The notes below the pieces were generated by a model that searched no databases, was not told the DNA's origin, and worked only from the letters and a program-made list of their open reading frames with translations. From a virus, in UHGV virus genome UHGV-1360836: 36,282 nucleotides of DNA; one strand, written 5' to 3'. Positions within the stretch are counted from its first letter, which is position 1. Every line of letters starts with the position of its first letter. Position numbers and translations under genes: made by a program. Positions 1 to 27,312 of this stretch are shown here, one piece after another.

Positions 1-313
1 GTACGGCAATGCGTGGGTGCGCGGCGATGCACAGGTTTCCGGCAATGCGCGGGTGTGCAGCGATGAGGACTATGCATACGCTCACGGTTTCGGATCTGTC
101 AACCGTACAACGACCTTCTTCCGTCTCAAAGATGGCGGCGTGGGTGTGCGGTGCGGATGCTTCTACGGGACGCTTGCACAGTTCCGGGATAAGATCCGGG
201 AGACACACGGAGAAACAAAGAAGGCACAAGAATACCTGATGCTGGCAGACCTGATGGAACTCAGATTCGAAGAGGATGAAAACGAAGTAGGAAATAGAAA
301 ATACGTTGAGTAA
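1..313 (+). CDS. Hexapeptide-repeat (beta-helix-like) protein, C-terminal part; the 5' end runs off the window start and is continuous in frame with the partial gene at 35978..36282
   Basis: Frame 2 is open from base 2. It encodes tandem six-residue units G-[ND]-A-x-V-x (YGNAWVRGDAQVSGNARVCS...), then a unique about 80-aa tail ending at TAA 311..313. The underlying DNA is an 18-bp tandem repeat. Confidence 0.6.
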   Translation, partial: YGNAWVRGDAQVSGNARVCSDEDYAYAHGFGSVNRTTTFFRLKDGGVGVRCGCFYGTLAQFRDKIRETHGETKKAQEYLMLADLMELRFEEDENEVGNRKYVE

Positions 314-397
314 TGAAAGAAGATAGTGTGATGTTAAACGCGGTGATGGCTGTGATTATTTACATCCTGCAGGCAGGACCGATTTGAAAGGAGGCGA

Positions 398-667
398 ATG
401 GAAATGAAGCTCGGAAAGACGAAACTAAAAAGAATGTTGTCAGAAGAGACAGGGATTCCGCCGCAGGATATTGCGGATTTTGGGAAGTATGAGTATTACG
501 GAAATAAAGAGCAGTTGTCGGTCGGTGGTCATACGCTGACGGCAGCTAACGGAGTGATCAAGCTTCACAGTCCTTTTGTGTGCGATGATAGAGTCGTGTA
601 CAGAAGCTGTGAAATAAAAAGAGCGCCCACAAATGAGGCGGCAACCTCAGGGCGCACTGGTAATTAA
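398..667 (+). CDS. Hypothetical small protein (89 aa) in a cassette with conserved boundary sequences; ATG 404 is an alternative start
   Basis: RBS AAGGAGG at 387..393. The ORF is flanked by a 67-bp 5' boundary and a 45-bp 3' boundary that recur at 35646..35712 and 35893..35935. Confidence 0.5.
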   Translation: MEMKLGKTKLKRMLSEETGIPPQDIADFGKYEYYGNKEQLSVGGHTLTAANGVIKLHSPFVCDDRVVYRSCEIKRAPTNEAATSGRTGN

Positions 668-697
668 TTTATTTTATATTAACACAAGGAGGTAAAG

Positions 698-904
698 ATG
701 TACATAGGTATCGGACCGGAATCCAAAAAACGAGTTCTCGAAGAAGATGCATTTTCATATGCATGCGATCGTATCTATTCCGGAACAGAGGAAGAGCAGG
801 ATGTTGCAATGCAGATCTTCCGGGAAGCCGAGAACTTCCATCTTGCGGCGCTTGAGCTGGTAGAGTGGTTTTATTCCGGCAACTGGATAAAGGGGGATGA
901 TTGA
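698..904 (+). CDS. Hypothetical protein (68 aa)
   Basis: Strong RBS AAGGAGG at 686..692, spaced 5 nt from ATG 698. Confidence 0.5.
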   Translation: MYIGIGPESKKRVLEEDAFSYACDRIYSGTEEEQDVAMQIFREAENFHLAALELVEWFYSGNWIKGDD

Positions 905-1053: not shown

Positions 1054-1950
1054 ATGTATGAGGTAGCAACACAACAGAGTGGAGAAATGGTAAGTCGAAA
1101 TACACAGACAGAAATGATGATCAGCCGGCAGGCTCAGGAAGTGCAGGGCGCTATGGTGATCGCAAAGCGTTTTCCAAGAGATGAAGTAGAAAGCTTTAAC
1201 CGGATTATGCAGTCTTGTAAAAGGAAATCTCTTGCAGAGAGCGCAATGTATGAATATCCACGTGGGGGAACAAAAGTTTCCGGGCCCTCTATCCGTCTTG
1301 CCGAAGCAATGGCGCAGAACTGGGGAAATATTGATTTTGGAATTACGGAATTGGAGCAGAAAAATGGGGAGTCACAGGTTATGGCCTATGCGTGGGATTT
1401 GGAGACAAATACCCGTCAGGTCAAAATATTTAGTGTTCCGCATGTTCGCGGAACAAAGAAGGGAAATGTCCCGCTGACGGATCCGAGAGATGTTTACGAA
1501 ATGGTTGCAAATCAGGGAGCACGCCGGCTGCGTTCATGTATTTTGGGGATTATTCCCGGTGATGTTGTTGAAGCAGCAGTTAAACAGTGCGAGGACACGC
1601 TTATAAATGGAGAGAAAAAACCGTTGATTGATCTAGTACGAGATATGGCAGCAATTTTTCAAAATGAGTTTGGAGTACCATTGGATGCAATCGAAAAGTA
1701 CATTGGCTGTAAATCAGAAGCGTTCAGTATGCGAGATCTTGTCCGGTTAAAGAAAGTCTATACATCCCTGCGAGATGGCATGGCAAAACGTGAGGATGTC
1801 TTTGAACTATCGACACTTGTAGGCAATGAGACTGAAAGAGAGGTAAAAGATCCGTTTGCAAATCAGCAGAAGGACGGAAAAAGTTCCACAGCAAAACGAG
1901 GGGTGAAGAATGATGAGAATACAAAGAAAGCTGAGGCTGACACAGAGTAA
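1054..1950 (+). CDS. Putative phage recombination protein (single-strand annealing protein-like; family not resolved)
   Basis: 298-aa ORF with RBS AAAAGGAG. It sits immediately upstream of a PD-(D/E)XK nuclease gene, the usual SSAP-exonuclease pairing in phages. The family assignment is an inference from context only. Confidence 0.45.
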   Translation: MYEVATQQSGEMVSRNTQTEMMISRQAQEVQGAMVIAKRFPRDEVESFNRIMQSCKRKSLAESAMYEYPRGGTKVSGPSIRLAEAMAQNWGNIDFGITELEQKNGESQVMAYAWDLETNTRQVKIFSVPHVRGTKKGNVPLTDPRDVYEMVANQGARRLRSCILGIIPGDVVEAAVKQCEDTLINGEKKPLIDLVRDMAAIFQNEFGVPLDAIEKYIGCKSEAFSMRDLVRLKKVYTSLRDGMAKREDVFELSTLVGNETEREVKDPFANQQKDGKSSTAKRGVKNDENTKKAEADTE

Positions 1951-2671
1951 TTACTATTCCCCCGAAACGGATCAGCAGTATTTCTCTGTATCGCAATACA
2001 AAGATTTTATGAAATGCGAGGCTATGGCTATGGCGAAGCTTCGTGGTGAATATAAGCCAGCGATGACACGTGCCATGCTGACGGGATCTTTTGTAGATTC
2101 CTATTTTGAAGGAACATTAGACTTGTTTATAAACGAGCATCCAGCCGTGTTTACACAGAAGCAGGAGTTACGCAGTGAATTTAAGAAAGCGAATGAAATC
2201 ATTGCACGAATAAATCAGGACGATACATTCCTGCGGTTTATGTCGGGAGAAAAGCAAAGGATTATGACCTTCGAACTGTTTGGGTATCCGTGGAAGATGA
2301 AGATGGACAGCTATCTTCCCGGAATCTGCATTACTGATCTGAAAGTAGTGCAGAAATTCCGGACCCTTCCTCTGTGGCGGTATGACCTGCAGGGAGCTGT
2401 CTATCAGAAAGGTGTGGAGCTCGTTACCGGAGAACAGTTGCCGTTCTATTTGGCCGTAGCTACGAAAGAGCGGACGATTGATCTGGATATCTTCCAGATT
2501 ACGCAGCCGGTGCTTGATATTGCACTGCGTGAGATTGAGCAAAACATTGAACATTATGCACGTGTGAAATATGGCCAGGAGGAGCCGGTATACTGCGGGA
2601 AATGTGATTATTGCAAGAGCGTTAAGGAAGCTCGTATCAGGAATTATAGTGAGCTATTGGAGGGATTATAG
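1910..2671 (+). CDS. PD-(D/E)XK-superfamily nuclease (Cas4/RecB-like exonuclease with C-terminal Cys cluster)
   Basis: Contains a D...ITDLKVV (D-x-K) core and a C-terminal YCGKCDYC cysteine cluster. It overlaps the upstream gene, suggesting translational coupling. Confidence 0.55.
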   Translation: MMRIQRKLRLTQSNYYSPETDQQYFSVSQYKDFMKCEAMAMAKLRGEYKPAMTRAMLTGSFVDSYFEGTLDLFINEHPAVFTQKQELRSEFKKANEIIARINQDDTFLRFMSGEKQRIMTFELFGYPWKMKMDSYLPGICITDLKVVQKFRTLPLWRYDLQGAVYQKGVELVTGEQLPFYLAVATKERTIDLDIFQITQPVLDIALREIEQNIEHYARVKYGQEEPVYCGKCDYCKSVKEARIRNYSELLEGL

Positions 2672-2673
2672 AG

Positions 2674-4227
2674 TTGAAGTTAATTAAAATTTTGAGCGAC
2701 AAAGTACAGATCCGGACGGATCAGCAGGAATTCAGCAATGTCAGGATCAATGACCTAATCTCTATTACAGATGGGACAGCAGAGCTGGTTACGATGGTGA
2801 CGGCAGTGACAGATAACGATGCAGAAGCAGGTATTTCGGATGATGATTTCATACTGGGAGGGGCAAGCATCAAAGTGGTGGAGTGCTCGATTATTGGGAG
2901 TGTCCATAATGGAAGATTCAGTAAGGCTTTGGATCAGTATCCTACAACAGATATCACCGCCCGTGAGATTGATGGAGAAGAGTTTTCAAAGATGATCAGC
3001 CGACCGGACAGCGGGTTCTGTATCGGAAAATATGCCGTTTATCATTGCCCGGCATGGGTAGATGGCAACCGTTTCTTTCAGAGGCATTCCTGCATTGTTG
3101 GAAATACCGGTTCTGGAAAATCGGAGACAGTGACCAAGATTCTAGAGGAGACAAGCAAGCTACCGGGGGCGAATATTATAATGTTTGACATTCATGGGGA
3201 ATACGGGGAGCTGTCATATGCCCGGAATATTTCATTTAGTTCAGCAATGCCGTTTCCAATCTGGATGTTCGGATTTTCGGATATGGTCTCAAATATTTTG
3301 AAGATCAAAGAGGAGTCAGCCACGGTTGCCATGGCAGCGCTCCGGAAATGTTATAAACAGATCTGTCCCGATGGAAATGAAGGGAAGCCGGTTTATTTCA
3401 GCTATAAAAAACTGATTGACTATCTCAAAGGGCTGAATGAGGAGCAGGTGGAGACAGGAGAGTTTTACAAGACTGGAGCCAATGCAGGACTGCCTAAGAA
3501 AGTAAAAGGCGAATACAACGGACGTCTTCATAGCATTATCAGTACATTGGAATCAAAAGAAAATGATGCAAGACTGGCGTTTCTCTTTCGGGATGCTGAT
3601 CAGAGTTATCTGGCAGAACTGCTGGTTCAGATCCTTGGCAATGATAAGCCGGTCAAAAATATTGACCTCTCCAATATGCCACATGATGTTGCCATCGCGG
3701 TGATCGGGGCGGTAACAAAACTGATTTACGGAGTGCAGCAGACGTTTAGAGGTGGAGAAATTACACCGGTGACATTGGTGTGCGATGAAGCCCATGTTTA
3801 TATACCGAATAACTTTCAACTCTCTGCTTCCGAACGGCGTATGGTTGAGATCTTCGAGAACATCGCAAAAGAGGGGCGAAAGTTTGGCATGACGCTTTTT
3901 GTAGCAAGCCAGCGTCCCTCAGAACTGAACAAAACCATCATGGCGCAGTGTGCAAACTTCATTGTTTCAAAGCTGAACAATGAGACAGATAAATCTATGG
4001 TCAAAGGCATGCTGCCAGACGGAAATGAGGATATCATCGATTCCACGACTACATTCAGTCCGGGAGAGGTGCTGGTCATCGGGGATGCGGTACCGATTCC
4101 GCTGAAGATCAAGGTAGAGCTCGCAAAAGAAAGACCTCAATCCCGCACAATTAATTTCTGGGATGTATGGAAAGAAGGCTCTAAAACGGATCTGGCACAT
4201 GGAATTGACAGATATATGAATTCATAA
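2674..4227 (+). CDS. HerA/FtsK-like (DUF87-type) P-loop ATPase
   Basis: Walker A GNTGSGKS, Walker B VCDEAHVY and ASQRPSEL motifs. TTG start with RBS GGAGGG at 2660..2665. Confidence 0.65.
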   Translation: MKLIKILSDKVQIRTDQQEFSNVRINDLISITDGTAELVTMVTAVTDNDAEAGISDDDFILGGASIKVVECSIIGSVHNGRFSKALDQYPTTDITAREIDGEEFSKMISRPDSGFCIGKYAVYHCPAWVDGNRFFQRHSCIVGNTGSGKSETVTKILEETSKLPGANIIMFDIHGEYGELSYARNISFSSAMPFPIWMFGFSDMVSNILKIKEESATVAMAALRKCYKQICPDGNEGKPVYFSYKKLIDYLKGLNEEQVETGEFYKTGANAGLPKKVKGEYNGRLHSIISTLESKENDARLAFLFRDADQSYLAELLVQILGNDKPVKNIDLSNMPHDVAIAVIGAVTKLIYGVQQTFRGGEITPVTLVCDEAHVYIPNNFQLSASERRMVEIFENIAKEGRKFGMTLFVASQRPSELNKTIMAQCANFIVSKLNNETDKSMVKGMLPDGNEDIIDSTTTFSPGEVLVIGDAVPIPLKIKVELAKERPQSRTINFWDVWKEGSKTDLAHGIDRYMNS

Positions 4228-4245
4228 AGAAAGGAGACAAACACT

Positions 4246-4692
4246 ATGAAACACATTAACATTGAACAGTTCTCAAACGGAGAATTGACCCAGCAGATCA
4301 ATCGGGAGATGGAGGCGGTGGCGAGAAACATCGCGGATCCGAATACAGAGGCGAAGACAGCTCGGAAGATTACCGTGACAATCACCATGAAGCCGAACGA
4401 ACAGAGGGATTTTATTACGACCAGCATCACAACGAAGTCTGCGCTGGCACCGACGCTTGGAGCTGTGACTGCTCTCGGCATCCGGAAGGATCTGAAGAGC
4501 GGAGAGATTGAGGTGGGTGAGATTGGGAACCAGATTCCGGGGCAGATGTCTATGGAGGATATGACGGCACAGCAGCCCGCCGTACCGGTTCAGGAGATCG
4601 ACGGGAAAGTTGTTGATACGGACACCGGAGAAATCGTCGGACAGGCACCCGGCGGTAATGTAGTAGATCTGAGAAAAGCAAGAGAAGCATAA
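4246..4692 (+). CDS. Hypothetical protein (148 aa)
   Basis: RBS AAAGGAG 9 nt upstream of ATG. Placed within the replication module. Confidence 0.5.
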   Translation: MKHINIEQFSNGELTQQINREMEAVARNIADPNTEAKTARKITVTITMKPNEQRDFITTSITTKSALAPTLGAVTALGIRKDLKSGEIEVGEIGNQIPGQMSMEDMTAQQPAVPVQEIDGKVVDTDTGEIVGQAPGGNVVDLRKAREA

Positions 4693-4706
4693 GGAGGATA
4701 AGAAAG

Positions 4707-5447
4707 ATGTTTGAAGGATTAAAAGAAGCGTTACAGTATGTGAATGGACTGAAAGAAGAGAGTATGCAGCCGATCGTGACAGAGATTGCGGGGAAGACCT
4801 ACTGCAATAAGGATCTTAAAAGATACGGCAGGGAAGATCTGGCAGATCCGATCTATGTGAACACCCTTTCTGCAATGGTGGACTACATTACCGGAAAGAA
4901 GGAAGAGCTCCGGGAGAAGATGATCTTACATATCAGGAACCAGAAGGAAGTGACATTATACTCCGGTCTTCTTGCGGAGCGCCGCAGGGAAACTCTCTTT
5001 GTATGTGATGCCATCATAAACGAGTTTAGATTTGATAATTACTATGATCAGGAACGCTTTTTAATTGAACTGCAGGCGAACTTTGTGGAGAACGATGACC
5101 TGAAATTGATTATGCAGGTTGCAGGGAATATTCAGGCGGGAACAACAGCAGATTATTCAGATGATGGAATTTCACAGAAAACAACGATCAGGACTGGCGT
5201 ACAGCGTGTCGATGTACAGGTGCCGAATCCAGTGAGTCTAATTCCGTACAGGACATTCGCCGAAATTGATCAACCATCCAGTCTTTATGTATTCCGCGTT
5301 AAGGATGATGGGAACGGAGCTCCTATGTTTAAGCTTGTGGAAGCGGATAACGGATTGTGGAAACATGCAGCGATGCTTAAGATAAAGGATTATTTTGAGC
5401 ATGCACTTCCGAGCGCGTGCAAAGAAAATTTGACGATCATCGCGTAA
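4707..5447 (+). CDS. Hypothetical phage protein (246 aa)
   Basis: RBS AAGGAGG 8 nt upstream. Co-directional with neighbours at tight spacing. Confidence 0.5.
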   Translation: MFEGLKEALQYVNGLKEESMQPIVTEIAGKTYCNKDLKRYGREDLADPIYVNTLSAMVDYITGKKEELREKMILHIRNQKEVTLYSGLLAERRRETLFVCDAIINEFRFDNYYDQERFLIELQANFVENDDLKLIMQVAGNIQAGTTADYSDDGISQKTTIRTGVQRVDVQVPNPVSLIPYRTFAEIDQPSSLYVFRVKDDGNGAPMFKLVEADNGLWKHAAMLKIKDYFEHALPSACKENLTIIA

Positions 5448-5552
5448 TAGCGCTATCTCCTAAGAATTATGATAGATGTCACATGTAACTTGTAAACTGT
5501 GGTCTCATCGGTGTCGGTCTTTGTTACTGGCACCGAGGAAAGGAGAAGAAGC

Positions 5553-5993
5553 GTGCAGTCAGTCACATTTCAGGTCCCCGGAAAACCTCAAGGAAAAGCT
5601 AGGGCACGTACTGTTTACAATGCTCATCTGAAGCATTGTGTTTCGTATACGCCAGAGAATGATCTGCTGTATGAGAATTTGATCAAGACAATGTATATGC
5701 AGGCATCCGGTGGAATCCGATTTGAAAAGGAAACACCGGTTACACTTCGGATCATAGCAAGGTTTGAGCCGCCGAAGAGTGCATCGAAAAAACGCCAGCA
5801 GCAGATGCTCTCCGGGGATATTCTACCATTGAAGAAGCCGGATATTGATAATATTGTAAAGGTTGTTGCAGATGCACTGAACGGAGCAGCATATCACGAT
5901 GATACGCAGATCGTATTCACGATCGCGAAGAAAGCCTATTCCGCGGTGGAAGGGCTTGATATTACGGTTGAGGAATATACAAACGGAAGGTAG
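5553..5993 (+). CDS. rusA: RusA-family Holliday junction resolvase
   Basis: N-terminal VTFQVPGKPQGKARAR and the catalytic region KPDIDNIVKVVADALNGAAYHDDTQI match RusA family hallmarks. GTG 5553 has RBS AGGAG 7 nt upstream; the ORF is open from 5499. Confidence 0.8.
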   Translation: MQSVTFQVPGKPQGKARARTVYNAHLKHCVSYTPENDLLYENLIKTMYMQASGGIRFEKETPVTLRIIARFEPPKSASKKRQQQMLSGDILPLKKPDIDNIVKVVADALNGAAYHDDTQIVFTIAKKAYSAVEGLDITVEEYTNGR

Positions 5994-6002
5994 GTGATCT
6001 TG

Positions 6003-6857
6003 ATGGGACGTGGTGCTCCCAATAAAAAAGGTCTGACTTACTTTCCGAAGATGATAGATTTTTATGAAGATGATAAAATCTTTGATTTACTGGATCGGTA
6101 TGGTCCACTGGGTGTGACCGTGTATGACTGTATACTCTGTATCGTATACAAGCACGGATACTACGCAGAGATCCCCTTGGATAAGCTATCGAAAATGATC
6201 ATAAAGATGATCGGGAACAAGTGGGTGAAGAGCCAAAAGGCTGTCGTGCAAGTGGTGCACTTTTGCTCTGAGATAGGTCTCCTTGATGATGACCTCATGA
6301 CGAAAAACATCATCACCTCTGTTGGAATTCAGCGTCGCTATTACGAGATAGCAGTAAAGCGCATGAAAAGACGGCTCTATACAGATCAGTATTGGCTCCT
6401 CGGAAAAGCCGAGGAAGGGGAGTCTTTATTAAATGCACCCTTTAATGGAATTAATTCAGACGAAAATCGAATTTCTTCGGAAGAAAATCAAAATAATTCC
6501 GAAGAAAGTACCCTAGAAATAAAAGAAAATAAAAATATAGATAATATAGCGTTCTCCTCAGAACTGGAACGGGCGTTCCAGATGTATCTTCTTGTCCGCA
6601 AGAAGAATTTCGGAGAAATTGAAGAGGAACAGATTCAGGCATTGAGGGAAGATCTGTTGAGTTTGAGCGATAATGAAGAGGAGCGGATCGCCATCGTGAA
6701 GAAGGCAACAGCTAGCGGATGGAAGTCTTTCTATAAGACAGAAAAGAAGCGAAAAGATTTTGGAGTAAGAAAAGGAAAGAAGATAAATAATAACAATTTT
6801 GAGCGGCGGCAGTACGACATGGATGCATTGGAGAGTCAGTTGATCGGGAATAGATAG
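6003..6857 (+). CDS. Phage replisome organizer / DnaD-like replication initiation protein (DUF4373-type N-terminal domain)
   Basis: The N-terminus GLTYFPKMIDFYEDDKIFDLLDRYGPLGVTVYDCILCIVYKHGYY matches the phage replisome-organizer N-terminal pattern. The central part is acidic with low complexity. Confidence 0.55.
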   Translation: MGRGAPNKKGLTYFPKMIDFYEDDKIFDLLDRYGPLGVTVYDCILCIVYKHGYYAEIPLDKLSKMIIKMIGNKWVKSQKAVVQVVHFCSEIGLLDDDLMTKNIITSVGIQRRYYEIAVKRMKRRLYTDQYWLLGKAEEGESLLNAPFNGINSDENRISSEENQNNSEESTLEIKENKNIDNIAFSSELERAFQMYLLVRKKNFGEIEEEQIQALREDLLSLSDNEEERIAIVKKATASGWKSFYKTEKKRKDFGVRKGKKINNNNFERRQYDMDALESQLIGNR

Positions 6858-6873
6858 GAGGTACAGCAAAAGA

Positions 6874-7467
6874 ATGGAGAAAGTAACGATTGATTATAAT
6901 CGTCTCTGCCTAGAGTTGGAAAAACAGGGCAAGACAAAAGCAGATTTATCTAGGGACATGACGAAGAACAAGAACTTCGTCGGCTTGATGGAAAAGAATC
7001 CGGATCAGCCAGCGGAGGTAGAACGGCTTATGTGTTTGCTGCTCGGATTGGAACAGGGGAGTCTGATCAAGCAGGAGGAAGCAACTGGATCACAGGGAGA
7101 AATCAAGATACTGGAAAACCTGCACAAAGAAATGCGAGAAATCCATCAGGCTATTATAGAGTACGGGGAGCTTATCGAGAAAATTTGGAGTAAAGTACAT
7201 GCAAATACCCTTCAGCTTGAGAAAGTAAAGGAAGATGTTAAGGAATGTGCACAGGTGTTAAAGATGACCGATTACGACAAAGCGGTTCGTTTTTTGAAAG
7301 AGACATTGGCAGGTGGTCGGATCGATGGCGCGGAGGTATTGAGGATGGCAGATGCTACAGGGATCAAGAGAGCGGATCTCAATAAAGCAAAGAGAGATAT
7401 CGGTGTAGACACAGCACAGACAGGATACGGTAAAAATCAAAAGACATGGTGGTTTTTGTCTGAGTAA
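6874..7467 (+). CDS. Hypothetical protein (197 aa), possible DNA-binding replication accessory protein
   Basis: RBS AGGAGG upstream. Position is immediately after the replisome organizer. Confidence 0.45.
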   Translation: MEKVTIDYNRLCLELEKQGKTKADLSRDMTKNKNFVGLMEKNPDQPAEVERLMCLLLGLEQGSLIKQEEATGSQGEIKILENLHKEMREIHQAIIEYGELIEKIWSKVHANTLQLEKVKEDVKECAQVLKMTDYDKAVRFLKETLAGGRIDGAEVLRMADATGIKRADLNKAKRDIGVDTAQTGYGKNQKTWWFLSE

Positions 7468-7525
7468 AAAAAGAAAGGAGCCAGCCTCCGGCCGGGGCAA
7501 TGGTATACCGGGCTTCTTGCGAGAG

Positions 7526-8908
7526 ATGAAGAGAGATTTGATAATAGACTGCTTTGCCGGTGGAGGTGGGGCAAGCGTAGGAATTGAGATGGCGCTGGGG
7601 CGATCGGTCGATATTGCAATCAATCACGATCCGGATGCAATTCTGATGCATAAAACGAACCATCCGAATACATTACATCTGACAGAAGATATTTTTAGGG
7701 TGGATCTGAAAAAATATGTGAAAGGTCGGCATGTGGCTCTTATGTGGGCATCGCCGGACTGTACGAGCCATAGCAAGGCGAAAGGGGGGAAACCCCGTGA
7801 GAGAGGTCTAAGGATCCTTCCGTGGGCCGTGTATAAGCATACGAAGGCTATCCTACCGGATATAATCCTGATGGAAAACGTGGAAGAGATTCAACAGTGG
7901 GGCCCGCTTGACGCAGACGGACATCCGATCAAGGAGCGCCGCGGAGAGGATTATCAGAAGTTCATAACAGCCATGAAGTCTCTCGGATATGTATTTGACT
8001 GCCGGGAGCTTGTGGCAGCAGACTATGGAGCGCCTACAACACGGAAACGTTGGTACGCAATATTCCGGCGGGATGGTCGGGAGATTGTCTGGCCGGCACC
8101 GACACATTTCAAGGATAGAGAACCACACTGGAAGGCATGCGGAGATTACATAGACTGGTCTGATTTGGGACGGTCTATATTTGATAGACCGAAGCCACTG
8201 GCAGATGCGACTATGAAGCGAATTGCAAACGGAATTCGAAAATATATCATTGAAAATCCTGCACCATATATTGTAAAGGATGGGGGAAAACTGTTTGTTT
8301 CATATTTGGACAAGGCATATGGCGGGAATTATGCAGGCTGTGGGAGCGACTTGAGTAATCCGTGTAGTACTATAACAACTGTGGATCATAACCGACTTGT
8401 AACTGCATTTTTGATCCAATACCACGGAGAGACAAAGGCAGGAGAGTCCCGTGGGCAACTTCTGACGGAGCCAATAAAGACCATAGATACCAGCAATCGG
8501 TACGGACTCGTAACCGCATTTATTACAAAGTTCTATAAAAGCGGGATCGGACAGGAATGCGATGAACCGTTACACACCATTACAACATCGCCGGGGCATT
8601 TCGGACTGGTGAATGTAGTGTTGGATATTGAGGGGGGAAAGTATATCCTGAATGACATCTTCCTCAGGATGCTAAAACCGGAAGAACTGAAACTGATGCA
8701 GGGCTTTCCGAAGGATTACATCATTGACCGGGATTACAGGTGGAAATCATATCCGATTACAAAACAGGTGGCACGGATTGGGAACAGTGTTGTGCCGATT
8801 ATGGCACAGAAACTGGTAGGAGCAAACTGCCCGTATCTGAAGGTTGGAGAACGGTTGCCGAACTTCCGAACAGAGGAAGAAGGAAGTGGGCAGATTAGGT
8901 TTGTTTAA
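7526..8908 (+). CDS. DNA (cytosine-5)-methyltransferase, orphan, with non-canonical motif IV
   Basis: Motif I IIDCFAGGGGASVG, motif VI LMENVEE, motif VIII TRKRWYAIFRR and motif X IGNSVVPIMA. Motif IV reads SPDCTSHS instead of GPPCQGFS. A TTG start at 7517 is also possible. Confidence 0.75.
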   Translation: MKRDLIIDCFAGGGGASVGIEMALGRSVDIAINHDPDAILMHKTNHPNTLHLTEDIFRVDLKKYVKGRHVALMWASPDCTSHSKAKGGKPRERGLRILPWAVYKHTKAILPDIILMENVEEIQQWGPLDADGHPIKERRGEDYQKFITAMKSLGYVFDCRELVAADYGAPTTRKRWYAIFRRDGREIVWPAPTHFKDREPHWKACGDYIDWSDLGRSIFDRPKPLADATMKRIANGIRKYIIENPAPYIVKDGGKLFVSYLDKAYGGNYAGCGSDLSNPCSTITTVDHNRLVTAFLIQYHGETKAGESRGQLLTEPIKTIDTSNRYGLVTAFITKFYKSGIGQECDEPLHTITTSPGHFGLVNVVLDIEGGKYILNDIFLRMLKPEELKLMQGFPKDYIIDRDYRWKSYPITKQVARIGNSVVPIMAQKLVGANCPYLKVGERLPNFRTEEEGSGQIRFV

Positions 8909-8941
8909 GTCATTCACGAGTTGAGTGAAAGGAGAGCGGAG

Positions 8942-9097
8942 ATGAAAGATGAAACAAAAAGCACAGTAACGATCATTGAAGAGGTTTGTGAGGACATTTG
9001 CGAAAACTATTGTGAGTACAGAAATACGATAGACGACTACGGCGAGTGTGATATGCAACGAGAGAGCGGCGAATGTCCGTTAGATCGGTTGAATTAA
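8942..9097 (+). CDS. Small Cys-rich protein (51 aa)
   Basis: Strong RBS AAAGGAGAG upstream. Eight Cys arranged as C-x3-C-x3-C ... C-x6-C, suggestive of a small zinc-binding protein. Confidence 0.4.
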   Translation: MKDETKSTVTIIEEVCEDICENYCEYRNTIDDYGECDMQRESGECPLDRLN

Positions 9098-9304
9098 GTT
9101 GATTTTAATGGAGAGGTAAAAATGGAAAGCGATGCGGGAAAAGACGGATCACGGAAACGAGGCAGACCGAAAAAGGAGATGATACATTGAGTAACACAAA
9201 CAAACCAAGTGCTGCCGCGCTGATCCGAGCGCAGGGGCAGCAGATCCGGCGAGAGGCAGCGTGGGAATATTTACAGAGACGATGTGGATTAAGGGGTGAT
9301 GCGG

Positions 9305-9730
9305 ATGGAGATAACGAAGGAATTGCTCCAGGGATACCGGAGTAAAAAGGATGAGATTCTGGAGCTGGATTACATACTCAAAAACCGATGGAGAGATGAG
9401 GGGTTGATCGGGAATGACGTAATCTTTGATTACAGCAAGGGATACCCCATGCCACAGGGCGTGGTAGGATTTGACAAGGAGAAGTATGATCGCCTTCAGT
9501 GTCGGGATCAGCGACGGAAGGAGCAGCTGGAGCAGGAATGCGAGGAAATCGAGACTTTTATCGAAAATATTGATGAAAGCCTGACGAGACGGATATTCAG
9601 AATGTGCTTCGTAGATGGGCGCAGACAAAAGGATGTGGCTAAGGCAGTGCATTTAGACAGAAGTCGCATAAGCAGAAAAATAGATAGTTATCTCGAAAAC
9701 GCACACAAAGCACAAAACGCACATGTATAA
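9305..9730 (+). CDS. ArpU/RinA-like late transcriptional activator (sigma-70 region-4-like HTH)
   Basis: About 140 aa with a C-terminal HTH (RRQKDVAKAVHLDRSRISRKIDSY). It sits just upstream of the packaging module. RBS AAGGGG upstream. Confidence 0.6.
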   Translation: MEITKELLQGYRSKKDEILELDYILKNRWRDEGLIGNDVIFDYSKGYPMPQGVVGFDKEKYDRLQCRDQRRKEQLEQECEEIETFIENIDESLTRRIFRMCFVDGRRQKDVAKAVHLDRSRISRKIDSYLENAHKAQNAHV

Positions 9731-18990: not shown

Positions 18991-19537
18991 CGAAATTTTA
19001 ATCGGAGCGTGTACTGTGTATATGTATGAATTTACCGGAACAGAGATCCCGGAACACGCGACCATTGAAACAGAAGAACATGATGTCGGGCATTGCTCTT
19101 CTGGGTTTACCGTAAATTATAAGCCGACAAAATACGATGTGAAAAATCAGTATGGACAGATTGTAAGGTCTGCGATCACAGAAGAGGAAATCTCGGCAAA
19201 GACGGGAGTTTTATCGTGGAATCTTGCGAATATGTCTCTCTTATCCACCGGAGTCTACACGGAAGATAAGGAAGGAAAGAAAAAAGATCTGATTTTTACC
19301 GGGGATGGAAAGGCATTAAAAACAGTTTTGCTTAGGGCAGTACACACAAAGGAGAACGGGAAAAAGATTCGTTTTACGATGATCGGACAGGGCGGATCGG
19401 GATTTGCAATCGCGTGGGAGAACAAAGAAGTAACGATCGATGCAGAATTAACGGCGATCAAGAAAGTAAAAGGTTTCCTTGCAAGTTTTGAAGAAGAACT
19501 TACGGACGAAGAAGCGGCGGCGATTGTCGCGGCATAG
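18977..19537 (+). CDS. Major tail protein
   Basis: 186 aa. RBS GGAGGA 6 nt upstream of ATG 18977. Followed by the G/GT chaperone pair and the tape measure gene. Confidence 0.65.
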   Translation: MKNNDEILIGACTVYMYEFTGTEIPEHATIETEEHDVGHCSSGFTVNYKPTKYDVKNQYGQIVRSAITEEEISAKTGVLSWNLANMSLLSTGVYTEDKEGKKKDLIFTGDGKALKTVLLRAVHTKENGKKIRFTMIGQGGSGFAIAWENKEVTIDAELTAIKKVKGFLASFEEELTDEEAAAIVAA

Positions 19538-19551
19538 GAGGGCGCAATACG

Positions 19552-19938
19552 GTGTTAGATTTAGATCAATACATGAACAATTCCGTGAAAATAAAGCTGT
19601 TTGGGAAAGAATATGATGTATTCGAGCCGACAGTCGGAATGATTTTAGAAATGGATCAGTTAGAGGCGGATCTGTCCGAAGACAATGTGTATGAAAAACG
19701 GATCGATGCATGCTTGCTCCTGATAAATCATAACAGGCAGGGCAGGGAGTTTACGGCGGATGAGATAAAAAAACTTCCGTTAGAAGCAGTTATCCGTTTG
19801 ATTGCGGAAGTATCAGCGCTGCGGCTGAAAGCAGATACAGACCCAAACTCCGAATCCCAGTTCCGGAAGGAGAAATCGGAAAAGCAATCTGCGAAAAGTA
19901 TTTCCCGACAGAGAACTGGGAAAGAGCATACAGCCTAA
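19552..19938 (+). CDS. Tail assembly chaperone (gpG-like)
   Basis: 128 aa, between the major tail protein and the tape measure gene. The -1 frame is open over its 3' half. Confidence 0.6.
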   Translation: MLDLDQYMNNSVKIKLFGKEYDVFEPTVGMILEMDQLEADLSEDNVYEKRIDACLLLINHNRQGREFTADEIKKLPLEAVIRLIAEVSALRLKADTDPNSESQFRKEKSEKQSAKSISRQRTGKEHTA

Positions 19939-20174
19939 AAACAGGAATTATAAAAAGAATAAGCCAGTATACCGGATTGAACTTTCGTGAGGTCTTGGAA
20001 CTGCCTTATTCTTTTTATTTGTTATTAAATCGGGAAAGCTGGATCGCAAGCTATCAATCGTCCGAAGCCGGAAGAGAAATACTAAAGAATTTGTGGAGGC
20101 TACAGCAGACCGAGGCGGATGAAGTCGCAATCCATAAATTCGCAGAAGGGAGACGAAAATGGCAGGAGGCATAA
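19764..20174 (+). CDS. Tail assembly chaperone T-part, expressed as a G-T fusion by -1 programmed frameshift
   Basis: The -1 frame is open from 19764 to 20174 with no ATG and overlaps the tape measure start. An A-AAA-AAA heptamer lies at 19767..19773, directly after the -1-frame stop TGA at 19761..19763. Confidence 0.5.
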   Translation, partial: DKKTSVRSSYPFDCGSISAAAESRYRPKLRIPVPEGEIGKAICEKYFPTENWERAYSLKTGIIKRISQYTGLNFREVLELPYSFYLLLNRESWIASYQSSEAGREILKNLWRLQQTEADEVAIHKFAEGRRKWQEA

Positions 20175-23100
20175 AATTAGCACCTCTTTTAACAGAGATC
20201 AAAGTTGATATCGAAAACTTTAAAAGCGATATGGAGAAAGCGGCTGCAATCGGAACAAGTGAAGCAAAGCGGATCAGTCAGGAGATGGAAACGACGGCGA
20301 AAGTCGGAGAAAAATTTTCTAAAGCAGGTGATCTGCTGACGAAAGGCTTGACACTTCCGATCGTGGGCGTAGGCGCCGCAACGACAAAAATGGCGGTTGA
20401 TTTTGAGAGCAGCTTTGCAAAAGTAAGTACACTTCTGGATTCAAATGTCGTAGATTTTGCGCAGTACAAAAATGAGCTTCTTAATGCAAGTAGTGAAACG
20501 AAGGTGGCGGTGGATGAATTTTCAGAAGCCGTTTACTCTTCTATTTCTGCCGGGGTGGATCAAAAAGAAGCGATCCAGTTCACGACGGATGCGATGAAAC
20601 TTGCAAAAGGCGGTTTTACAGACGGGGCGAAAGCAGTAGACGTCCTCACGACGGCAATTAACGCGTATGGATTGCAAGCGAGTGACGCCACGAGAGTATC
20701 CGATTTATTGATCACAACGCAGAATTTGGGTAAAACAACGGTGGACGAACTGGCGTCAAGCATGGGAACAGTGATCCCGGTTGCAAATGCGTCGAATTTC
20801 AGCATTGAGGAATTGAGTGCATCTTATGCACAGCTTACGAAAAACGGTGTGGCAACAGCGGAATCTGGAACGTATTTAAAAGCAATGTTGTCAGAGTTGT
20901 CAAAAAGCGGAAGTATTGCGGACATAACGCTACGGGAGCTGACCGGAAAAGGTTTTGCAGATCTGAAAAAAGAGGGGACGTCTACAACAGAGATTTTGAG
21001 TCTGTTAAATGCAGAGGCGCAAAAGAACGATAAGACTTTGAAAGATATGTTCGGCTCGGTGGAAGCAGGATCGGCGGCGTTGGTGCTGTATAAAAACAGC
21101 GGCGAAGAATACAACGAAATGCTGCGGGGAATGGAGACAAGCGCAGGGGCGACACAAAAGGCGTTTGAAAAAATAGATGCGACTCCGGCAGAACAGTTAA
21201 AAGGCGCATTGAATGAACTTCGGAACGAAGGAGTACGTTTTGGTGCAGCGTTTGTTCCGGTAATCGAGAAAGCGTCTGATATATTAGGGGATGTGGCAGA
21301 AGCATTTTCCGAATTAACAGATGAGCAGAAAGAGAATGTGGTGCAGTGGGGAATCACTCTTGCGGCAGCAGGACCGGCGTTAAAACTAATCGGCGGTGGG
21401 ATTCAAACCTATACCAAGTTAAAGACAGGAATAGGAGCAGTCACAAAAGCGCTTAGTGCTTTCGGTAGCGCACAAGAGGCAGCAGGAATAGGAGGATCTG
21501 TACTTGCAAAAAGCTTTACAGGTGTTTTGGGAACATGTGCACCCCTTGCGGCAGGTTTAGCAGTGGTTGGCGCCGGAGTATATACACTCCACGAGCAAAG
21601 CGATGTATTGAATTCCACAGTCCTTAAATCGCGAGAGGAAATGTCATGGCTGGAAGAAGCGCTGGCAGACCTGCAAGGAGTTACGAGGTACACGAAAGAA
21701 GAACTGGAAGAAATGGGGTATGTTCATAAGGAATTCAGCGATGAGTTAAGCCCTGAATTTCAGGAAGCCGTGGAAGAATCTACGAAAAAGGTACAAGAAT
21801 TCAGCGTGTACTTGCACGAGATCGGATTTGACGGAATCATGACACAGGAGGAAACCGATGGGTTTACGAAACGGGTCAATGACATGTGTAGCGAAGTGAT
21901 CTCGACGATCGAAAGCAGAAAAGAGGAGGCACAAAGCGGACTGAAAGATCTGTTCATCGCAGATGATCAGGTGATTGATGAAAGCGAACAGAAAGTACTG
22001 GAACTGTTGTCGCAATCAAGTGATGCGCAGATCAGTGAAGTACAGACGTTACAAGATGAAATTCTTGCGATCCAGCAAAATGCAGCGAATGAAAAACGAC
22101 AGTTGAATGAGCAGGAAATCGCAGACATCCAAAATTATAATGAACAGATACGTCAGATTGAACTGGAAGCCCTGGGAGGAACAGAGCAGGAGATTCTTTA
22201 TGCAAAAAATGAGTTTGCTGCTCGAGTGCGAACGATGGATCTGGAAAGTGCATCGGAACTTTTACAAGAGAAAGCGAAGATCCGAGATGATGAGATCGTA
22301 CAGATACAAGCAGCTTACGATACAGAAATTCAGTTGCTGCAAAGTAAACTTAGCACATGCAAGGAAGAAGATCGGGCGTATTATGAAGAACAGATCGCAA
22401 ATTTAGAGCAGGACAAGCAGAAAAAGATTACAGAACAGCGTGACCTTTACGATGAATACCTCAGCATTATCGAAGAATATAACCCGAAATTACTGGATGG
22501 AATCAGCGACTTGAATGGTCAGATCCTCACAGGAGAGGAGGAAAGGAATGCTGAATATCTGCAAAAGGTACAGGAAAGGTATGCGGGGTTAGAGCAAATT
22601 ACAGAGTCAGGATGTTATACCCTATATAACATGGAAAAAGGCACGAATGAAGATATCGTGGTCAATTATGATCAGGCAACAGGGAAGATCGTCGGTCTCT
22701 ACCACGAAGCGTCTTCAACACTCGTCGGATATTCCAAGGAAATCCAAGGCGCGACGGTGGAAATGGCGCTGAACGGAAAAGGGTCTTTTGAGATGCTGGG
22801 AACATCCTTAGATGGACTGAAAGAGAAGAACGGTGAACTCGTCAATGCGAATGGGGATGTTGTGAGCTCCTTGTCGGACATTAAAAAGTCTGCAGACGGC
22901 ACGCGGGAAGGAATTGCGATTTTAAACGGAACACCTTGTGAGGTAAAGGTTAATAAAGACGGAACAATCGCAGATTTACGGGCGATTGATGAGGAGGCGA
23001 ACAACGCCACGAGAGCGAGGACACTGTCGATCACATTAGCAACGAACGCAATAACAAGTGGCATTAACGCTGCGATTTCAGCAGCGCAGGGATATTCTCA

Positions 23101-23332
23101 CTATAACGGACTTGATAACGTACCTTACGACGGATATCAGGCAGTGTTGCACAAAGGAGAGCGTGTCCTGACAGCAGAGGAGAACAAGGCGTATAGTAAC
23201 GATCCGGGGATTGATTACAATAAGATGGAAAAGTGTATGAAATCTGCGGTCAGGGAACTTACTTTATCAGTGGGCAGCAGGGAACTCGGCAGAATTATGG
23301 ATGAGCATTTGCGAGAAAGGGGGATTCTGTAA
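20159..23332 (+). CDS. Tail tape measure protein
   Basis: 1057 aa, Ala/Gly-rich with coiled-coil segments, TP901-like N-terminus. RBS GAAGGGAGA upstream. Confidence 0.85.
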   Translation: MAGGIKLAPLLTEIKVDIENFKSDMEKAAAIGTSEAKRISQEMETTAKVGEKFSKAGDLLTKGLTLPIVGVGAATTKMAVDFESSFAKVSTLLDSNVVDFAQYKNELLNASSETKVAVDEFSEAVYSSISAGVDQKEAIQFTTDAMKLAKGGFTDGAKAVDVLTTAINAYGLQASDATRVSDLLITTQNLGKTTVDELASSMGTVIPVANASNFSIEELSASYAQLTKNGVATAESGTYLKAMLSELSKSGSIADITLRELTGKGFADLKKEGTSTTEILSLLNAEAQKNDKTLKDMFGSVEAGSAALVLYKNSGEEYNEMLRGMETSAGATQKAFEKIDATPAEQLKGALNELRNEGVRFGAAFVPVIEKASDILGDVAEAFSELTDEQKENVVQWGITLAAAGPALKLIGGGIQTYTKLKTGIGAVTKALSAFGSAQEAAGIGGSVLAKSFTGVLGTCAPLAAGLAVVGAGVYTLHEQSDVLNSTVLKSREEMSWLEEALADLQGVTRYTKEELEEMGYVHKEFSDELSPEFQEAVEESTKKVQEFSVYLHEIGFDGIMTQEETDGFTKRVNDMCSEVISTIESRKEEAQSGLKDLFIADDQVIDESEQKVLELLSQSSDAQISEVQTLQDEILAIQQNAANEKRQLNEQEIADIQNYNEQIRQIELEALGGTEQEILYAKNEFAARVRTMDLESASELLQEKAKIRDDEIVQIQAAYDTEIQLLQSKLSTCKEEDRAYYEEQIANLEQDKQKKITEQRDLYDEYLSIIEEYNPKLLDGISDLNGQILTGEEERNAEYLQKVQERYAGLEQITESGCYTLYNMEKGTNEDIVVNYDQATGKIVGLYHEASSTLVGYSKEIQGATVEMALNGKGSFEMLGTSLDGLKEKNGELVNANGDVVSSLSDIKKSADGTREGIAILNGTPCEVKVNKDGTIADLRAIDEEANNATRARTLSITLATNAITSGINAAISAAQGYSHYNGLDNVPYDGYQAVLHKGERVLTAEENKAYSNDPGIDYNKMEKCMKSAVRELTLSVGSRELGRIMDEHLRERGIL

Positions 23333-24169
23333 ATGGATGTGTATTACATTAATCATTTAAACGAAAAGATTCTCCTCGACTCTGAAAATGTGATTCTGAA
23401 GTATCAAGAGTTATTCAACTATTCATGGGATGCAGATACAGATAATGGGAAAATAACGTCATTTACAAGAGAAATGGCCACATATCCCATTACGGTTACT
23501 GTAACCGCGGATTCAGATGAGGAATTTGCGGACATCCTGAATAATTTCCACAGCATCGTTGTAAAAGACATCATAAACCACAAACCGGGGCGGCTGTATA
23601 TTGGAGATCAGTATTTGTCCTGCTATATATCCGGCGATATAAAAACGGATGCGTTTATGGGTGTTCCGATACAGGTTAAAAATCTTACCGTTGTGACGGA
23701 TCATCCGTTTTGGATTCACGAGGTATCAAGATCTTTCCAGCAGATTATATCGGGGGATGATCCAGAGGGGCATTTAGATTATGAGTATGATTTTAACTAT
23801 GATTACACAATGCCATATGGCAGTGATTTGATTTGGACAGTAGATCATTTTGCCCCCTGCGAATTTCTTCTGACGGTTTTCGGGCCTGTGACAGATCCGA
23901 TGATCTTAATTAATGGACATCCGTATCAAGTTTATACATCTCTGGACGAGAATGATTACATGCAGATCAATAGCCGGAATAATACGATTGTTAAATATAG
24001 GTCGGATGGAGTCCGACAGGATATTTATGATTCCCGAGCAAAGCAACAGTCAGTATTCGATCTGATTGCGCCGGGAAATATCCGTGTTGTTTGGCCAGGA
24101 AGTTTCGGCTTCGATCTTAAATTATACTGCGAAAGGAGCGAGCCGAAATGCAAGACGAAAGGCAGTTGA
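23333..24169 (+). CDS. Distal tail protein (Dit)
   Basis: 278 aa, directly after the tape measure gene (stop and start adjacent). Confidence 0.6.
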   Translation: MDVYYINHLNEKILLDSENVILKYQELFNYSWDADTDNGKITSFTREMATYPITVTVTADSDEEFADILNNFHSIVVKDIINHKPGRLYIGDQYLSCYISGDIKTDAFMGVPIQVKNLTVVTDHPFWIHEVSRSFQQIISGDDPEGHLDYEYDFNYDYTMPYGSDLIWTVDHFAPCEFLLTVFGPVTDPMILINGHPYQVYTSLDENDYMQINSRNNTIVKYRSDGVRQDIYDSRAKQQSVFDLIAPGNIRVVWPGSFGFDLKLYCERSEPKCKTKGS

Positions 24170-25152: not shown

Positions 25153-25154
25153 TT

Positions 25155-26027: not shown

Positions 26028-26033
26028 ATCTAA

Positions 26034-26417
26034 TCACTTCCAGGTACCTCGAGCATAGTAAGATAAATCAAAACTTGCTACATTCCAGGTCACAGCAGAA
26101 AGCAGATGGTATGAAAAGCTTGATTTGTAGCCATTTGCAGATCCGTACACCTTGCCCCATATCGCGCCGCCAGCTCCTATTGTGAGCACGATATTACATT
26201 TTGTTTTTGATGCAACCGGGAAGTTTAATGTAAATTGTCCGCTTGTGTAAATGCTACCGGCTTTTGTTCCGATCGCGCATGTAAACGGCGAATTGAACCA
26301 CATTTCGAGAGTCCCGTCGCTCCATTTGCGATATTTACCGTTGGAGTTGCTACCTTCTTCAACGATGTAGTTTTTTATTTTTGTAAAATCAGATGATAAC
26401 TCCGACAAATATTTATT
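26034..26417 (-). CDS. Silent alternative tail-fibre C-terminal cassette V2 (no own start), beginning at the right inverted repeat
   Basis: The minus-strand ORF is open through the repeat and encodes KNKYLSEL in the same codon phase as the plus-strand gene, then a distinct 120-aa Gly/Ser/Thr/Tyr-rich domain ending at 26034. No convincing RBS or start of its own. Confidence 0.5.
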   Translation of the reverse strand, partial: NKYLSELSSDFTKIKNYIVEEGSNSNGKYRKWSDGTLEMWFNSPFTCAIGTKAGSIYTSGQFTLNFPVASKTKCNIVLTIGAGGAIWGKVYGSANGYKSSFSYHLLSAVTWNVASFDLSYYARGTWK

Positions 26418-26418
26418 T
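26398..26418. repeat. Inverted repeat, right copy
   Basis: AACTCCGACAAATATTTATTT is the reverse complement of 25652..25672. Confidence 0.8.
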
Positions 26419-26453
26419 TTCCAAAAGATTAAGATAAGAAAGGACTGATATTT

Positions 26454-27152: not shown

Positions 27153-27168
27153 GAAAGGCGGGTAGTAT

Positions 27169-27312
27169 ATGGCAGAAATCAAGGAAGTAAAGACGGAAAA
27201 AATAACCGTAAATACTGGGGAACGTATCAAGATCAGTTTTGAGTTTTGGTATGAGCAGGATTGCCCTTACGACTATCCACAAGACTACCCGATAGCGAGC
27301 GAAAGAAAGTGA
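27169..27312 (+). CDS. Small XkdX-like protein (47 aa)
   Basis: RBS AAAGG upstream. Size and position match the XkdX family downstream of fibre genes. Confidence 0.35.
   Translation: MAEIKEVKTEKITVNTGERIKISFEFWYEQDCPYDYPQDYPIASERK

Follow-up and report, generated by a model that had tools for sequence, protein, structure and literature searches.

Repeated flanks around interchangeable small genes in a temperate phage as probable early-region elements and recombination substrates

In T4-type phages, small genes without known function in hyperplastic regions are separated by PeSLs (promoter-early stem-loops), elements that combine a sigma-70-type promoter with a stem-loop (PMC2839356, PMC4122927). 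The promoter of a PeSL has the orientation of the neighboring genes and transcribes the gene that follows it, and its stem-loop terminates upstream transcription; mini-circles have also been described for PeSLs (PMC2839356, PMC4122927). PeSLs mark the boundaries of indels and replacements and are thought to be substrates for homologous recombination, a process called ‘modular shuffling’; about 50 are present per genome, in virulent myoviruses of Gram-negative hosts (PMC2839356, PMC4122927). Lambda oop and P22 sar, in turn, are small cis-antisense RNAs from the early region of temperate phages (PMC12197685). Here, we analyzed the virus genome UHGV-1360836 from UHGV, a stretch of 36,282 nucleotides (nt) to which we refer as the window, and in which two short repeated sequences, flank L and flank R, enclose unrelated small open reading frames (ORFs) in two slots. 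We favor the reading, with a probability of about 0.7, that these flanks are functional sequences conserved in the early region of a temperate phage of Lachnospiraceae and that they double as substrates for ordinary homologous recombination.

Work on the modular theory by Susskind and Botstein in 1978, Juhala et al. in 2000 and Clark et al. in 2001 is said to have placed ‘boundary’ or ‘linker’ sequences at the borders of lambdoid genes. The present locus resembles such mosaic boundaries in that short conserved border stretches flank non-homologous alternatives, with identity to related phages rising from 78% to 99.9% at position 329.

Flanks L and R and the inserts between them

The first copy of flank L (35644..35712, plus strand) comprises the last 19 codons and the stop codon of TM74, together with the ribosome-binding site (RBS) of the next gene. 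TM74 (35478..35702, plus strand; phrog_22934, E 1.8e-49) encodes a 74-amino-acid (aa) tail-anchored membrane protein. It is followed by insert ORF B (35719..35910, plus strand), which encodes an acidic protein of 63 aa, by the first copy of flank R (35895-35935) and by SOL, a beta-solenoid repeat gene of the YdcK type. SOL starts with GTG at 35978, and its reading frame runs unbroken past the end of the window into 2-313, so that its 5′ part occupies 35978..36282 (plus strand; PF18836, E 9.7e-15) and its 3′ part 1..313 (plus strand; stop codon TAA at 311-313; phrog_7964 and phrog_20532). Behind SOL lie a stub of the membrane-protein gene that contains the second copy of flank L, termed L′ (329..397, plus strand; a repeat of 35644..35712), insert ORF A (398..667, plus strand), which reads through the hairpin of the second copy of flank R (617-657), and the downstream gene o68 (698..904, plus strand; phrog_30234). 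ORF A measures 89 aa from the ATG at 398, although RBS spacing suggests that it more probably starts at the ATG at 404 (87 aa). A third insert, ORF C (60 aa, phrog_34638), occupies the L-R interval of relatives.

In a repeat search of the window, the L copies align over 55 nt at 95% identity (329-383 versus 35644-35698) and the R copies over 71 nt at 82% (617-687 versus 35895-35965). An earlier note on this DNA had placed both repeats correctly and overstated two of their figures. It gave the L repeat as 67 bp at about 90% identity, whereas 331-397 and 35646-35712 are identical at 54/67 positions without gaps, a 1-nt indel after the stop codon displacing the RBS part. It also gave R as a 45-bp repeat with a perfect 27-mer; the exact shared string, AAATGAGGCGGCAACCTCAGGGCGCA, is 26 nt long (631-656 and 35909-35934) and has zero matches, even with up to 3 mismatches, in dinucleotide shuffles of the window. 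The same note called the gene between the flanks a hexapeptide-repeat gene; a repeat gene is indeed located there, and its family is instead the YdcK beta-solenoid (PF18836). Its description of the ORF bodies as unrelated is borne out, as pairwise comparison of A, B and C gave no significant BLASTP match and the bodies of A and B in the window have no nucleotide match. A remnant of 24 codons at 313..387, with an ATG overlapping the upstream TAA (TAATG), was found as described.

The flanks recur widely. They are present in 49 IMG/VR contigs, with the exact R core in 25 and the exact L core in 42, and a degenerate L core is found in at least 117 human-gut metagenome contigs; this count is a lower bound, and the tallies of inserts are drawn from the matches listed. 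The R core also occurs in 8 Lachnospiraceae genomes, of which only [Ruminococcus] torques ATCC 27756 (locus L050) carries L as well. The elements are arranged as L-R, L-R-L or L-R-L-R, and the L-to-R gaps take a few discrete sizes of 178, 185, 192, 195, 215 and 222 nt. A degenerate R pattern additionally matched eight high-GC GTDB genomes (Streptomyces, Chloroflexia and others), but these matches had no BLAST match to L, R or their neighbors and were rejected as chance.

Between the flanks, the inserts are interchangeable. Among the metagenome contigs listed, the full-length membrane-protein gene is followed by B in 72, by A in 8 and by C in 7, while the 24-codon stub is followed by B in 35 and by A in 3; the other slots hold frameshifted or collapsed forms. 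B thus predominates in both slots. R can be followed by any of at least six genes, namely SOL, o68 and those whose products begin with MIKCSKG, MKTVKVT, MESIKIN and MAATSFE. A is paired downstream with o68, MKTVKVT or MESIKIN, B with SOL, MIKCSKG, MKTVKVT or o68, and C with five different partners.

Alignment of the window with related contigs locates the ends of shared sequence at the flanks. With the R. torques prophage (L050) and with L029, identity is 97% over 35199-35717, and nothing is then shared until 35888-35959, with insert B on one side of the comparison and C on the other. At the second slot, L204, L156, L167 and L225 match the window at 99.5-99.9% identity over as much as 4.1 kb, beginning precisely at 329 and extending to the right. 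To the left of L, L204, L167 and L225 show 78% identity and contain a full-length membrane-protein gene and no solenoid gene. This leap in identity at 329 indicates that the window is a recent recombinant with a crossover in L. Blocks of at least 97% identity end at 35717 in four contigs (L219, L029, L050 and L222) and, across all fetched loci with contig ends excluded, at 394-398 in four contigs; blocks begin at 329 in seven contigs, which are at least 98% identical to the window from there onward, and at 617 in one.

Crossovers at the repeats would also account for changes in the number of units. In a deletion form, L011, L007, L195, L230 and L247 pass from 35711/35717 straight to 329 at 92-97% identity, and four contigs read L-A-R-o68-o45b-p3657-p253, which is the window without B-R-SOL-L′. 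In a duplication form, L194 and L260 carry two SOL genes separated by L′-B-R, and L174, L180 and L191 are consistent with a tandem duplication of SOL. The prediction that direct repeats on both sides of SOL would allow its loss or duplication is therefore matched by both products in natural contigs. The proposal of conserved flanks with swappable inserts likewise agrees with the alternation of A, B and C in the same slots with reassorted neighbors. As for whether the boundary sequences recur in related phages and what lies between them, which the earlier note had suggested cataloguing, both recur, around three ORF families.

SOL itself varies in length. It carries 18-nt (6-aa) tandem repeats (36121-36282 and 1-65), and among related contigs its product ranges from about 160 to 340 aa, mostly in steps of 18 nt, so the gene is prone to repeat-number variation. 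As a consequence, the R-to-L gaps of 600-971 nt (for example 600, 654, 672, 690, 744, 852 and 906) mostly differ from one another in steps of 18 nt. The ends of the window fall inside this repeat, so the number of repeats in the assembly may be uncertain; however, it is matched by a separate human-gut contig of 2.7 kb (L153), which is 100% identical over 34953..1406 and spans the window junction. Neither the junction nor the arrangement studied here is therefore an assembly artefact.

It could be argued that the pattern reflects no exchange at all, only a segmental duplication confined to one lineage or the misassembly of a repeat-rich circular contig. The cut within the tandem repeat would suit misassembly, and a plain L-B-R tandem duplication would explain that most double-slot relatives hold B paralogues in both slots (about 330 bp at 87-88% identity). 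We do take duplication of the entire L-B-R unit to be the basic event for this reason. As an account of the whole locus, however, this explanation has very little to recommend it, since the architecture recurs in over 30 independent contigs that stem from different samples, including the contig that crosses the window junction without a mismatch, and since A, B and C alternate in the same slots. The earlier note had named the failure of the boundaries to recur as the sign of such a lineage-specific event, and the copies in IMG/VR, Lachnospiraceae genomes and metagenomes contradict it. The A in slot 2 of the window, which is 97% identical to the slot-1 A cassette of L011, appears to be a later replacement.

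Conserved borders with interchangeable contents also raise the question of a dedicated site-specific system. Integron cassettes are promoterless small ORFs, each with an imperfect attC hairpin, that depend on IntI, attI and Pc and share a GTTRRRY core. If L and R were sites of such a system, or targets of homing endonucleases, one would expect what the locus indeed offers: same-orientation arrays of a small ORF followed by a hairpin, interchangeable content, and an ‘empty’ or collapsed slot in L068 and L179. Nevertheless, the sequence around these arrays makes this hypothesis highly improbable. No integron-type integrase or attI lies nearby, and the only recombinase seen is a large serine integrase (30651-32132). 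R, as read in the sequence, has neither the GTTRRRY core nor an attC box structure, and its hairpin is tied to an opposite-strand promoter and a U-tract. Pfam and PHROG searches revealed no homing endonuclease gene in any insert. The collapsed slot, in L068 (2500-2640) and L179, has a simpler origin in a deletion between two TAAAAAGA repeats inside ORF A, which cuts the ORF to about 24 codons and leaves L and the whole antisense unit described below intact; ORF A is thus dispensable while the flanks are kept. Furthermore, identity blocks end not at one fixed nucleotide but at both edges of 45-70 bp stretches (329 / 394-398 / 35711-35717 / 612-617 / 656-698), and this scatter over the edges of homologous stretches fits general homologous recombination. 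Of the earlier cassette-exchange proposal, exchange at the flanks is retained, while no dedicated cassette machinery is visible.

The pattern as a whole thus fits ordinary homologous recombination at conserved functional sequence. L and R are most likely the crossover points because they are the only stretches kept at 90-100% between otherwise differing phages, and each has its own cause of conservation: L encodes the transmembrane helix of a conserved protein, and R is probably part of a regulatory unit. We propose that a second L-ORF-R unit came to lie behind the solenoid gene through one ancestral non-homologous join, which left the 24-codon stub there. Crossovers inside L and R would then have swapped A, B and C in both slots, and crossovers at the repeats would also have deleted the segment B-R-SOL-L′ in some phages and multiplied it in tandem in others. 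These reactions could have been carried out by host RecA or by functions of the phage.

The membrane-protein gene and its stub support parts of this scheme. The C-terminal sequence of TM74, MLNAVMAVIIYILQAGPI, is almost unchanged in all relatives, whereas identity in the N-terminal part ranges from 72 to 99%. The helix encoded by L ends in YILQAGPI, and more distant homologues retain QAGP[IM]. Over the 57-nt coding part of L, the two copies in the window differ at 5 sites, four of them synonymous and one stop-to-stop. The stub (313..387, plus strand) joins MKEDSV to the last 18 residues of the membrane protein, its ATG overlapping the SOL stop codon, and the resulting peptide is identical in about 20 IMG/VR contigs. 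Its junction GTAATGAAAGAAGATAGTGTG, the 21 nt in front of L′, is identical in 20/20 IMG/VR copies, which argues for one ancestral non-homologous join. We also checked the stub for purifying selection: the differences between L and L′ and among L′ copies are all synonymous or stop-to-stop. However, 18/20 L′ copies share one sequence, and the L′ haplotypes are the same as full-length haplotypes that move together with the neighboring insert. Since recombination can import this pattern along with the insert, we rejected the substitutions as evidence that the stub is translated. Searches of Pfam, PHROGs, NCBIfam and PADLOC suggested no function for TM74, nor for ORFs A, B and C; ORF B had no match in any of them.

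The probable antisense unit that contains flank R

On the minus strand, R forms the hairpin of a larger conserved unit, which is why the R-side homology reaches to about 35959/698. The unit is probably a self-contained gene for a cis-antisense RNA of about 55 nt, with a predicted sigma-A-type promoter, a 20-nt gap, a hairpin and a U-tract. Copy 1 (35883..35988, minus strand) scores 113.8 bits with a covariance model and is matched by promoter and terminator scans as well as by its fold. It contains a −35 box TTCACT (35982-35977), a TGn-extended −10 box TACAAT (35959-35954), a predicted start at about 35947, a hairpin (35933-35901) and a U-tract (35900-35892). Copy 2 (605..710, minus strand) scores 101.1 bits and is matched by the terminator scan on the minus strand; its −35 box TGTACA (704-699) lies over the ATG of the next gene, and it continues with a TGn-extended −10 box TAATAT (681-676), a hairpin (655-623) and a U-tract (622-613). 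Neither the covariance model nor the 26-mer revealed a third unit in the 36-kb window, and L073 likewise has two units, each between small ORFs. Over a distance of more than 25 kb rightward of copy 2, no gene lies on the minus strand, leaving the local promoter as the only plausible source of leftward transcription.

The promoter is conserved on this strand. The motif TAnnAT is invariant in 22/22 unique copies, mostly with an extended TGn, its distance to the hairpin is constant at 20 nt, and a −35-like hexamer lies 17 nt beyond it, where it overlaps either the RBS or the start codon of the following rightward gene. A promoter score of at least 9/12 is reached by 31/37 unique copies on the minus strand; for the same stretches read on the plus strand the number is 4/37, and for shuffles the proportion is 13.5%. 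With the R copies as the basis of a covariance model, we identified 16 further copies, all on the minus strand and 0.3-2 kb upstream of homologues of p3657, the set searched being phages fetched through homologues of this downstream gene; many of them have a near-consensus promoter, TTGACT-17-TATAAT. All 18 covariance-model matches are opposite in strand to the flanking genes, with the hairpin downstream of its own promoter.

The hairpin is conserved in structure. Across distant phages its apical loop UUGCCG is constant and its two-tier geometry is kept while the stems covary, 8/11 base pairs having changed on both sides. Hairpin cells are paired at 96.6%, versus 75% in shuffles, sliding the 3′ partners lowers pairing to 41-56%, and the observed covariation score was reached by 0/500 shuffles. 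An A-rich tract, the U-tract of the minus strand, is kept before the hairpin even when it is encoded by unrelated ORF ends. It is likewise retained in more distant Lachnospiraceae prophages, where R follows other, unrelated ORFs without L. At the gathering score, Rfam 15 gave no match in the whole window, and a search of 560-720 in E-value mode gave only weak plus-strand chance matches.

The same sequence might instead act on the plus strand, as a terminator, an attenuator, an mRNA-stabilizing hairpin or the coding end of ORF A. The plus strand does fold into a hairpin, GCGCCC-ACAAA-TGAGG-CGGCAA-CCTCA-GGGCGC, and it is read through by ORF A, as by a number of distant ORFs, in the frame whose product contains AAT. 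We nevertheless consider a plus-strand role quite unlikely. No U-tract follows the plus-strand hairpin, whereas the minus-strand hairpin is followed by UCUUUUUAUUU; read on the minus strand, all 37 unique copies look like an intrinsic terminator, a shape that the plus strand lacks. For copy 2 in the window, the fold z-score is −3.45 on the minus strand versus −2.22 on the plus strand. Single-sided changes in the hairpin point the same way because they amount to G-U pairs when the minus strand is folded and to A-C mismatches when the plus strand is. In A2 (242 cells), 30 cells are G-U and 0 unpaired on the minus strand versus 0 and 30 on the plus strand, and in A3 (177 cells) the corresponding numbers are 28 and 6 versus 1 and 33; 30/242 and 33/177 cells are thus A-C mismatches on the plus strand. 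On the basis of these pair counts and the promoter scores, we rejected a plus-strand promoter or terminator. Protein coding does not explain the conservation of R either, since ORFs A and B read it in different frames, and B and C terminate ahead of the hairpin or within it. For ORFs B and A, the overlap with the hairpin and U-tract amounts to their last 9-45 nt; C stops before the hairpin, and just the U-tract abuts its stop codon.

A different possibility is that the minus-strand unit matters for the act of transcription, with a leftward promoter that interferes with or occludes rightward early transcription and a hairpin that is merely an insulator. In its favor, the −35 box and the spacer lie over the RBS and start codon of the following gene, whatever that gene is. 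In addition, two related phages (L071, 1548-1654, and L072, 1086-1190) have identical leftward promoter sequences and unrelated terminator hairpins, from which it follows that the hairpin part of the unit is itself replaceable. For a mere insulator, however, there would be no need to keep the UUGCCG loop and the two-tier geometry while the stems covary, and the leader length would not have to be fixed at 20 nt. We therefore regard this explanation as unlikely.

Several observations weigh against the reading of L and R as functional elements and recombination substrates, or against the RNA within it. The promoter and terminator are predictions at the level of consensus sequences, and the −35 boxes of the window are weak (TTCACT and TGTACA); moreover, conservation of the −35 region could partly reflect constraints on the RBS and start codons of the rightward genes. 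The hairpin barely varies in close relatives, the covariation stemming from more distant copies, and the alignment was fitted to the model, which biases the pair counts toward structure. The difference between the hairpins of L071 and L072 implies that the RNA sequence may matter less than a short burst of transcription. On the side of recombination, only three insert families are found among more than 160 contigs (matches listed), a small cassette repertoire, and no recombination protein was confidently identified, the sole find being a PDDEXK nuclease (DUF3799).

If the unit functions as predicted, it would yield an RNA of about 55 nt that is antisense to GCGCCCTGAGGTTGCCGCCTCA, to the 3′ end of the preceding small ORF and to the intergenic spacer. 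By analogy, this RNA could pair with the polycistronic early mRNA through a loop-loop contact between UUGCCG and CGGCAA, and pairing might alter the stability of the early mRNA or how strongly adjacent genes are expressed, much as lambda oop acts on cII. Alternatively, the leftward promoter could act through interference at the start of the next gene. More tentatively, and at somewhat less than even odds, we suggest that R represents an unreported family of cis-antisense RNAs of about 55 nt with a UUGCCG loop, which would regulate neighboring small early genes and serve as a portable recombination linker.

In distant prophages that lack the L nucleotide sequence, the membrane protein is still encoded one or two ORFs upstream of the antisense unit (L052, 209-439; L054, 2367-2663; L053, 1969-2244), and in L052 and L054 it ends in LQAGPM or SQAGPIF. 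The synteny of membrane protein, variable ORF and antisense unit therefore predates the L/R repeats, and it may reflect a functional link.

Phage genome, host and neighboring modules

The window is the complete, circularly permuted genome of a temperate siphovirus-like phage. Its lysogeny module includes the large serine integrase (30651-32132, minus strand) and a helix-turn-helix (HTH) repressor (33961-34434, minus strand), and a Cro-like HTH gene (34540-34725) precedes the rightward early region. Beyond the Cro-like gene, all larger ORFs are on the plus strand except 34960-35196 and one ORF in the tail-fiber region. Judging from the R core, which is found in prophage regions of [Ruminococcus] torques ATCC 27756, Dorea, Mediterraneibacter and Merdimonas, the hosts are Lachnospiraceae. 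Megablast searches of GenBank phages with 34500-36282 and 1-3000 as queries gave no match and hence no annotated relative.

Directly 3′ of slot 2, the region 1054-4227 encodes a 298-aa protein of phrog_3657 (p3657, 1054-1950), the PDDEXK nuclease (1910-2671) and a HerA-like helicase. Because the PDDEXK nuclease gene comes next, we examined p3657 as a candidate single-strand annealing protein. It has no Pfam or PDB sequence match, and its thousands of homologues are all unnamed (‘hypothetical’) and likewise lack a Pfam domain. Its AlphaFold model is poor (pLDDT 56.7), and a Foldseek search with it against the PDB returned nothing below E = 0.001.

A lone 78-aa gene on the minus strand (34960-35196) lies within the rightward early region, with a terminator downstream of it on the same strand (34790-34818, 11-bp stem); it is a moron-like insertion. 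In five related contigs, identity blocks stop at 34781, beside this gene, which marks another mosaic boundary.

In the plus-strand tail module, the minus-strand ORF 26037-26510 matches the C-terminal tip of a tail fiber (phrog_2712, positions 587-699 of 700). Most of this ORF is enclosed by an inverted repeat of 24 nt (25649-25672 / 26398-26421; 96% complementary, arms 725 nt apart). By analogy with the G segment of Mu and the C segment of P1, it looks like an invertible tail-fiber tip for host-range switching. The large serine integrase, the only recombinase seen, additionally matches a DNA-invertase family. Next to the integrase, the 345-aa ORF 29427-30464, possibly a lysin, contains a direct repeat of 73 nt at 85% identity (30107-30179 / 30230-30302, 123 nt apart), probably a duplicated domain.

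Significance and comparison with known systems

The locus offers a nucleotide-resolution view, natural intermediates included, of how small early genes are shuffled in temperate phages that infect dominant Firmicutes of the human gut. Crossovers fall in two functional sequences of 45-70 bp, and the products of replacement, deletion, collapse and tandem duplication are all present in public metagenomes. The L-R interval is also a naturally tolerant insertion slot for engineering such phages. The candidate small-RNA family is absent from Rfam, and since a type strain that can be cultivated, [Ruminococcus] torques ATCC 27756, carries it, direct tests are feasible. If the family is real, closed promoter-hairpin mini-genes would punctuate the early operons of abundant human-gut Lachnospiraceae prophages, and the R RNAs would possibly act together with the tail-anchored membrane protein that is always encoded one or two ORFs upstream. 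A regulatory RNA gene would then itself organize gene shuffling, as a reverse-oriented counterpart in temperate phages of the PeSLs of T4.

With respect to lambdoid mosaic boundaries, the locus differs in that both borders can be assigned a function of their own and in that deletion and tandem duplication are documented in metagenomes. It differs from integron cassettes in lacking both IntI/attI and the attC box structure, and its junctions are not at fixed nucleotides. In type I toxin-antitoxin systems of the 3′-overlapping kind found in Gram-positive prophages, a small hydrophobic toxin is encoded by an mRNA that an antisense RNA overlaps. We rejected this assignment, as the overlapped ORFs A, B and C are hydrophilic and the membrane protein is encoded one ORF further upstream. 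The synteny of membrane-protein gene, intervening ORF and antisense unit is nevertheless kept in the distant phages L052 and L054.

The R unit is similar in layout to lambda oop and P22 sar in having a predicted promoter of its own opposite the early operon, an intrinsic terminator and a predicted RNA of less than 100 nt. Like oop, it overlaps the 3′ end of the upstream gene and is located in the early region between immunity and replication/recombination genes. It differs in having no sequence or Rfam relationship to these RNAs, in the shorter predicted RNA of about 55 nt and in the possibility of two copies per genome. Moreover, the gene that it overlaps is interchangeable (A, B, C and others), so its target cannot be one particular protein such as CII.

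The resemblance to PeSLs lies at the level of DNA. The R unit likewise consists of a promoter (at least 9/12 in 31/37 copies) and a stable stem-loop (in all copies), and it is located at the borders of indels and replacements between related phages. In contrast to a PeSL, it lies on the strand opposite to the flanking genes and has its own terminator directly after the promoter, forming a closed mini-gene; one or two units, exactly two in the window, are present per genome rather than dozens. The phage is a temperate one of Lachnospiraceae, and the second recombination flank, L, is coding sequence. In addition, the products of deletion and duplication between two copies are here observed in nature. 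Orientation and copy number therefore place the R unit outside the PeSL family, but its action at the DNA level is similar, which extends the idea of a regulatory motif as a recombination linker to another type of phage and to a predicted antisense mini-gene.

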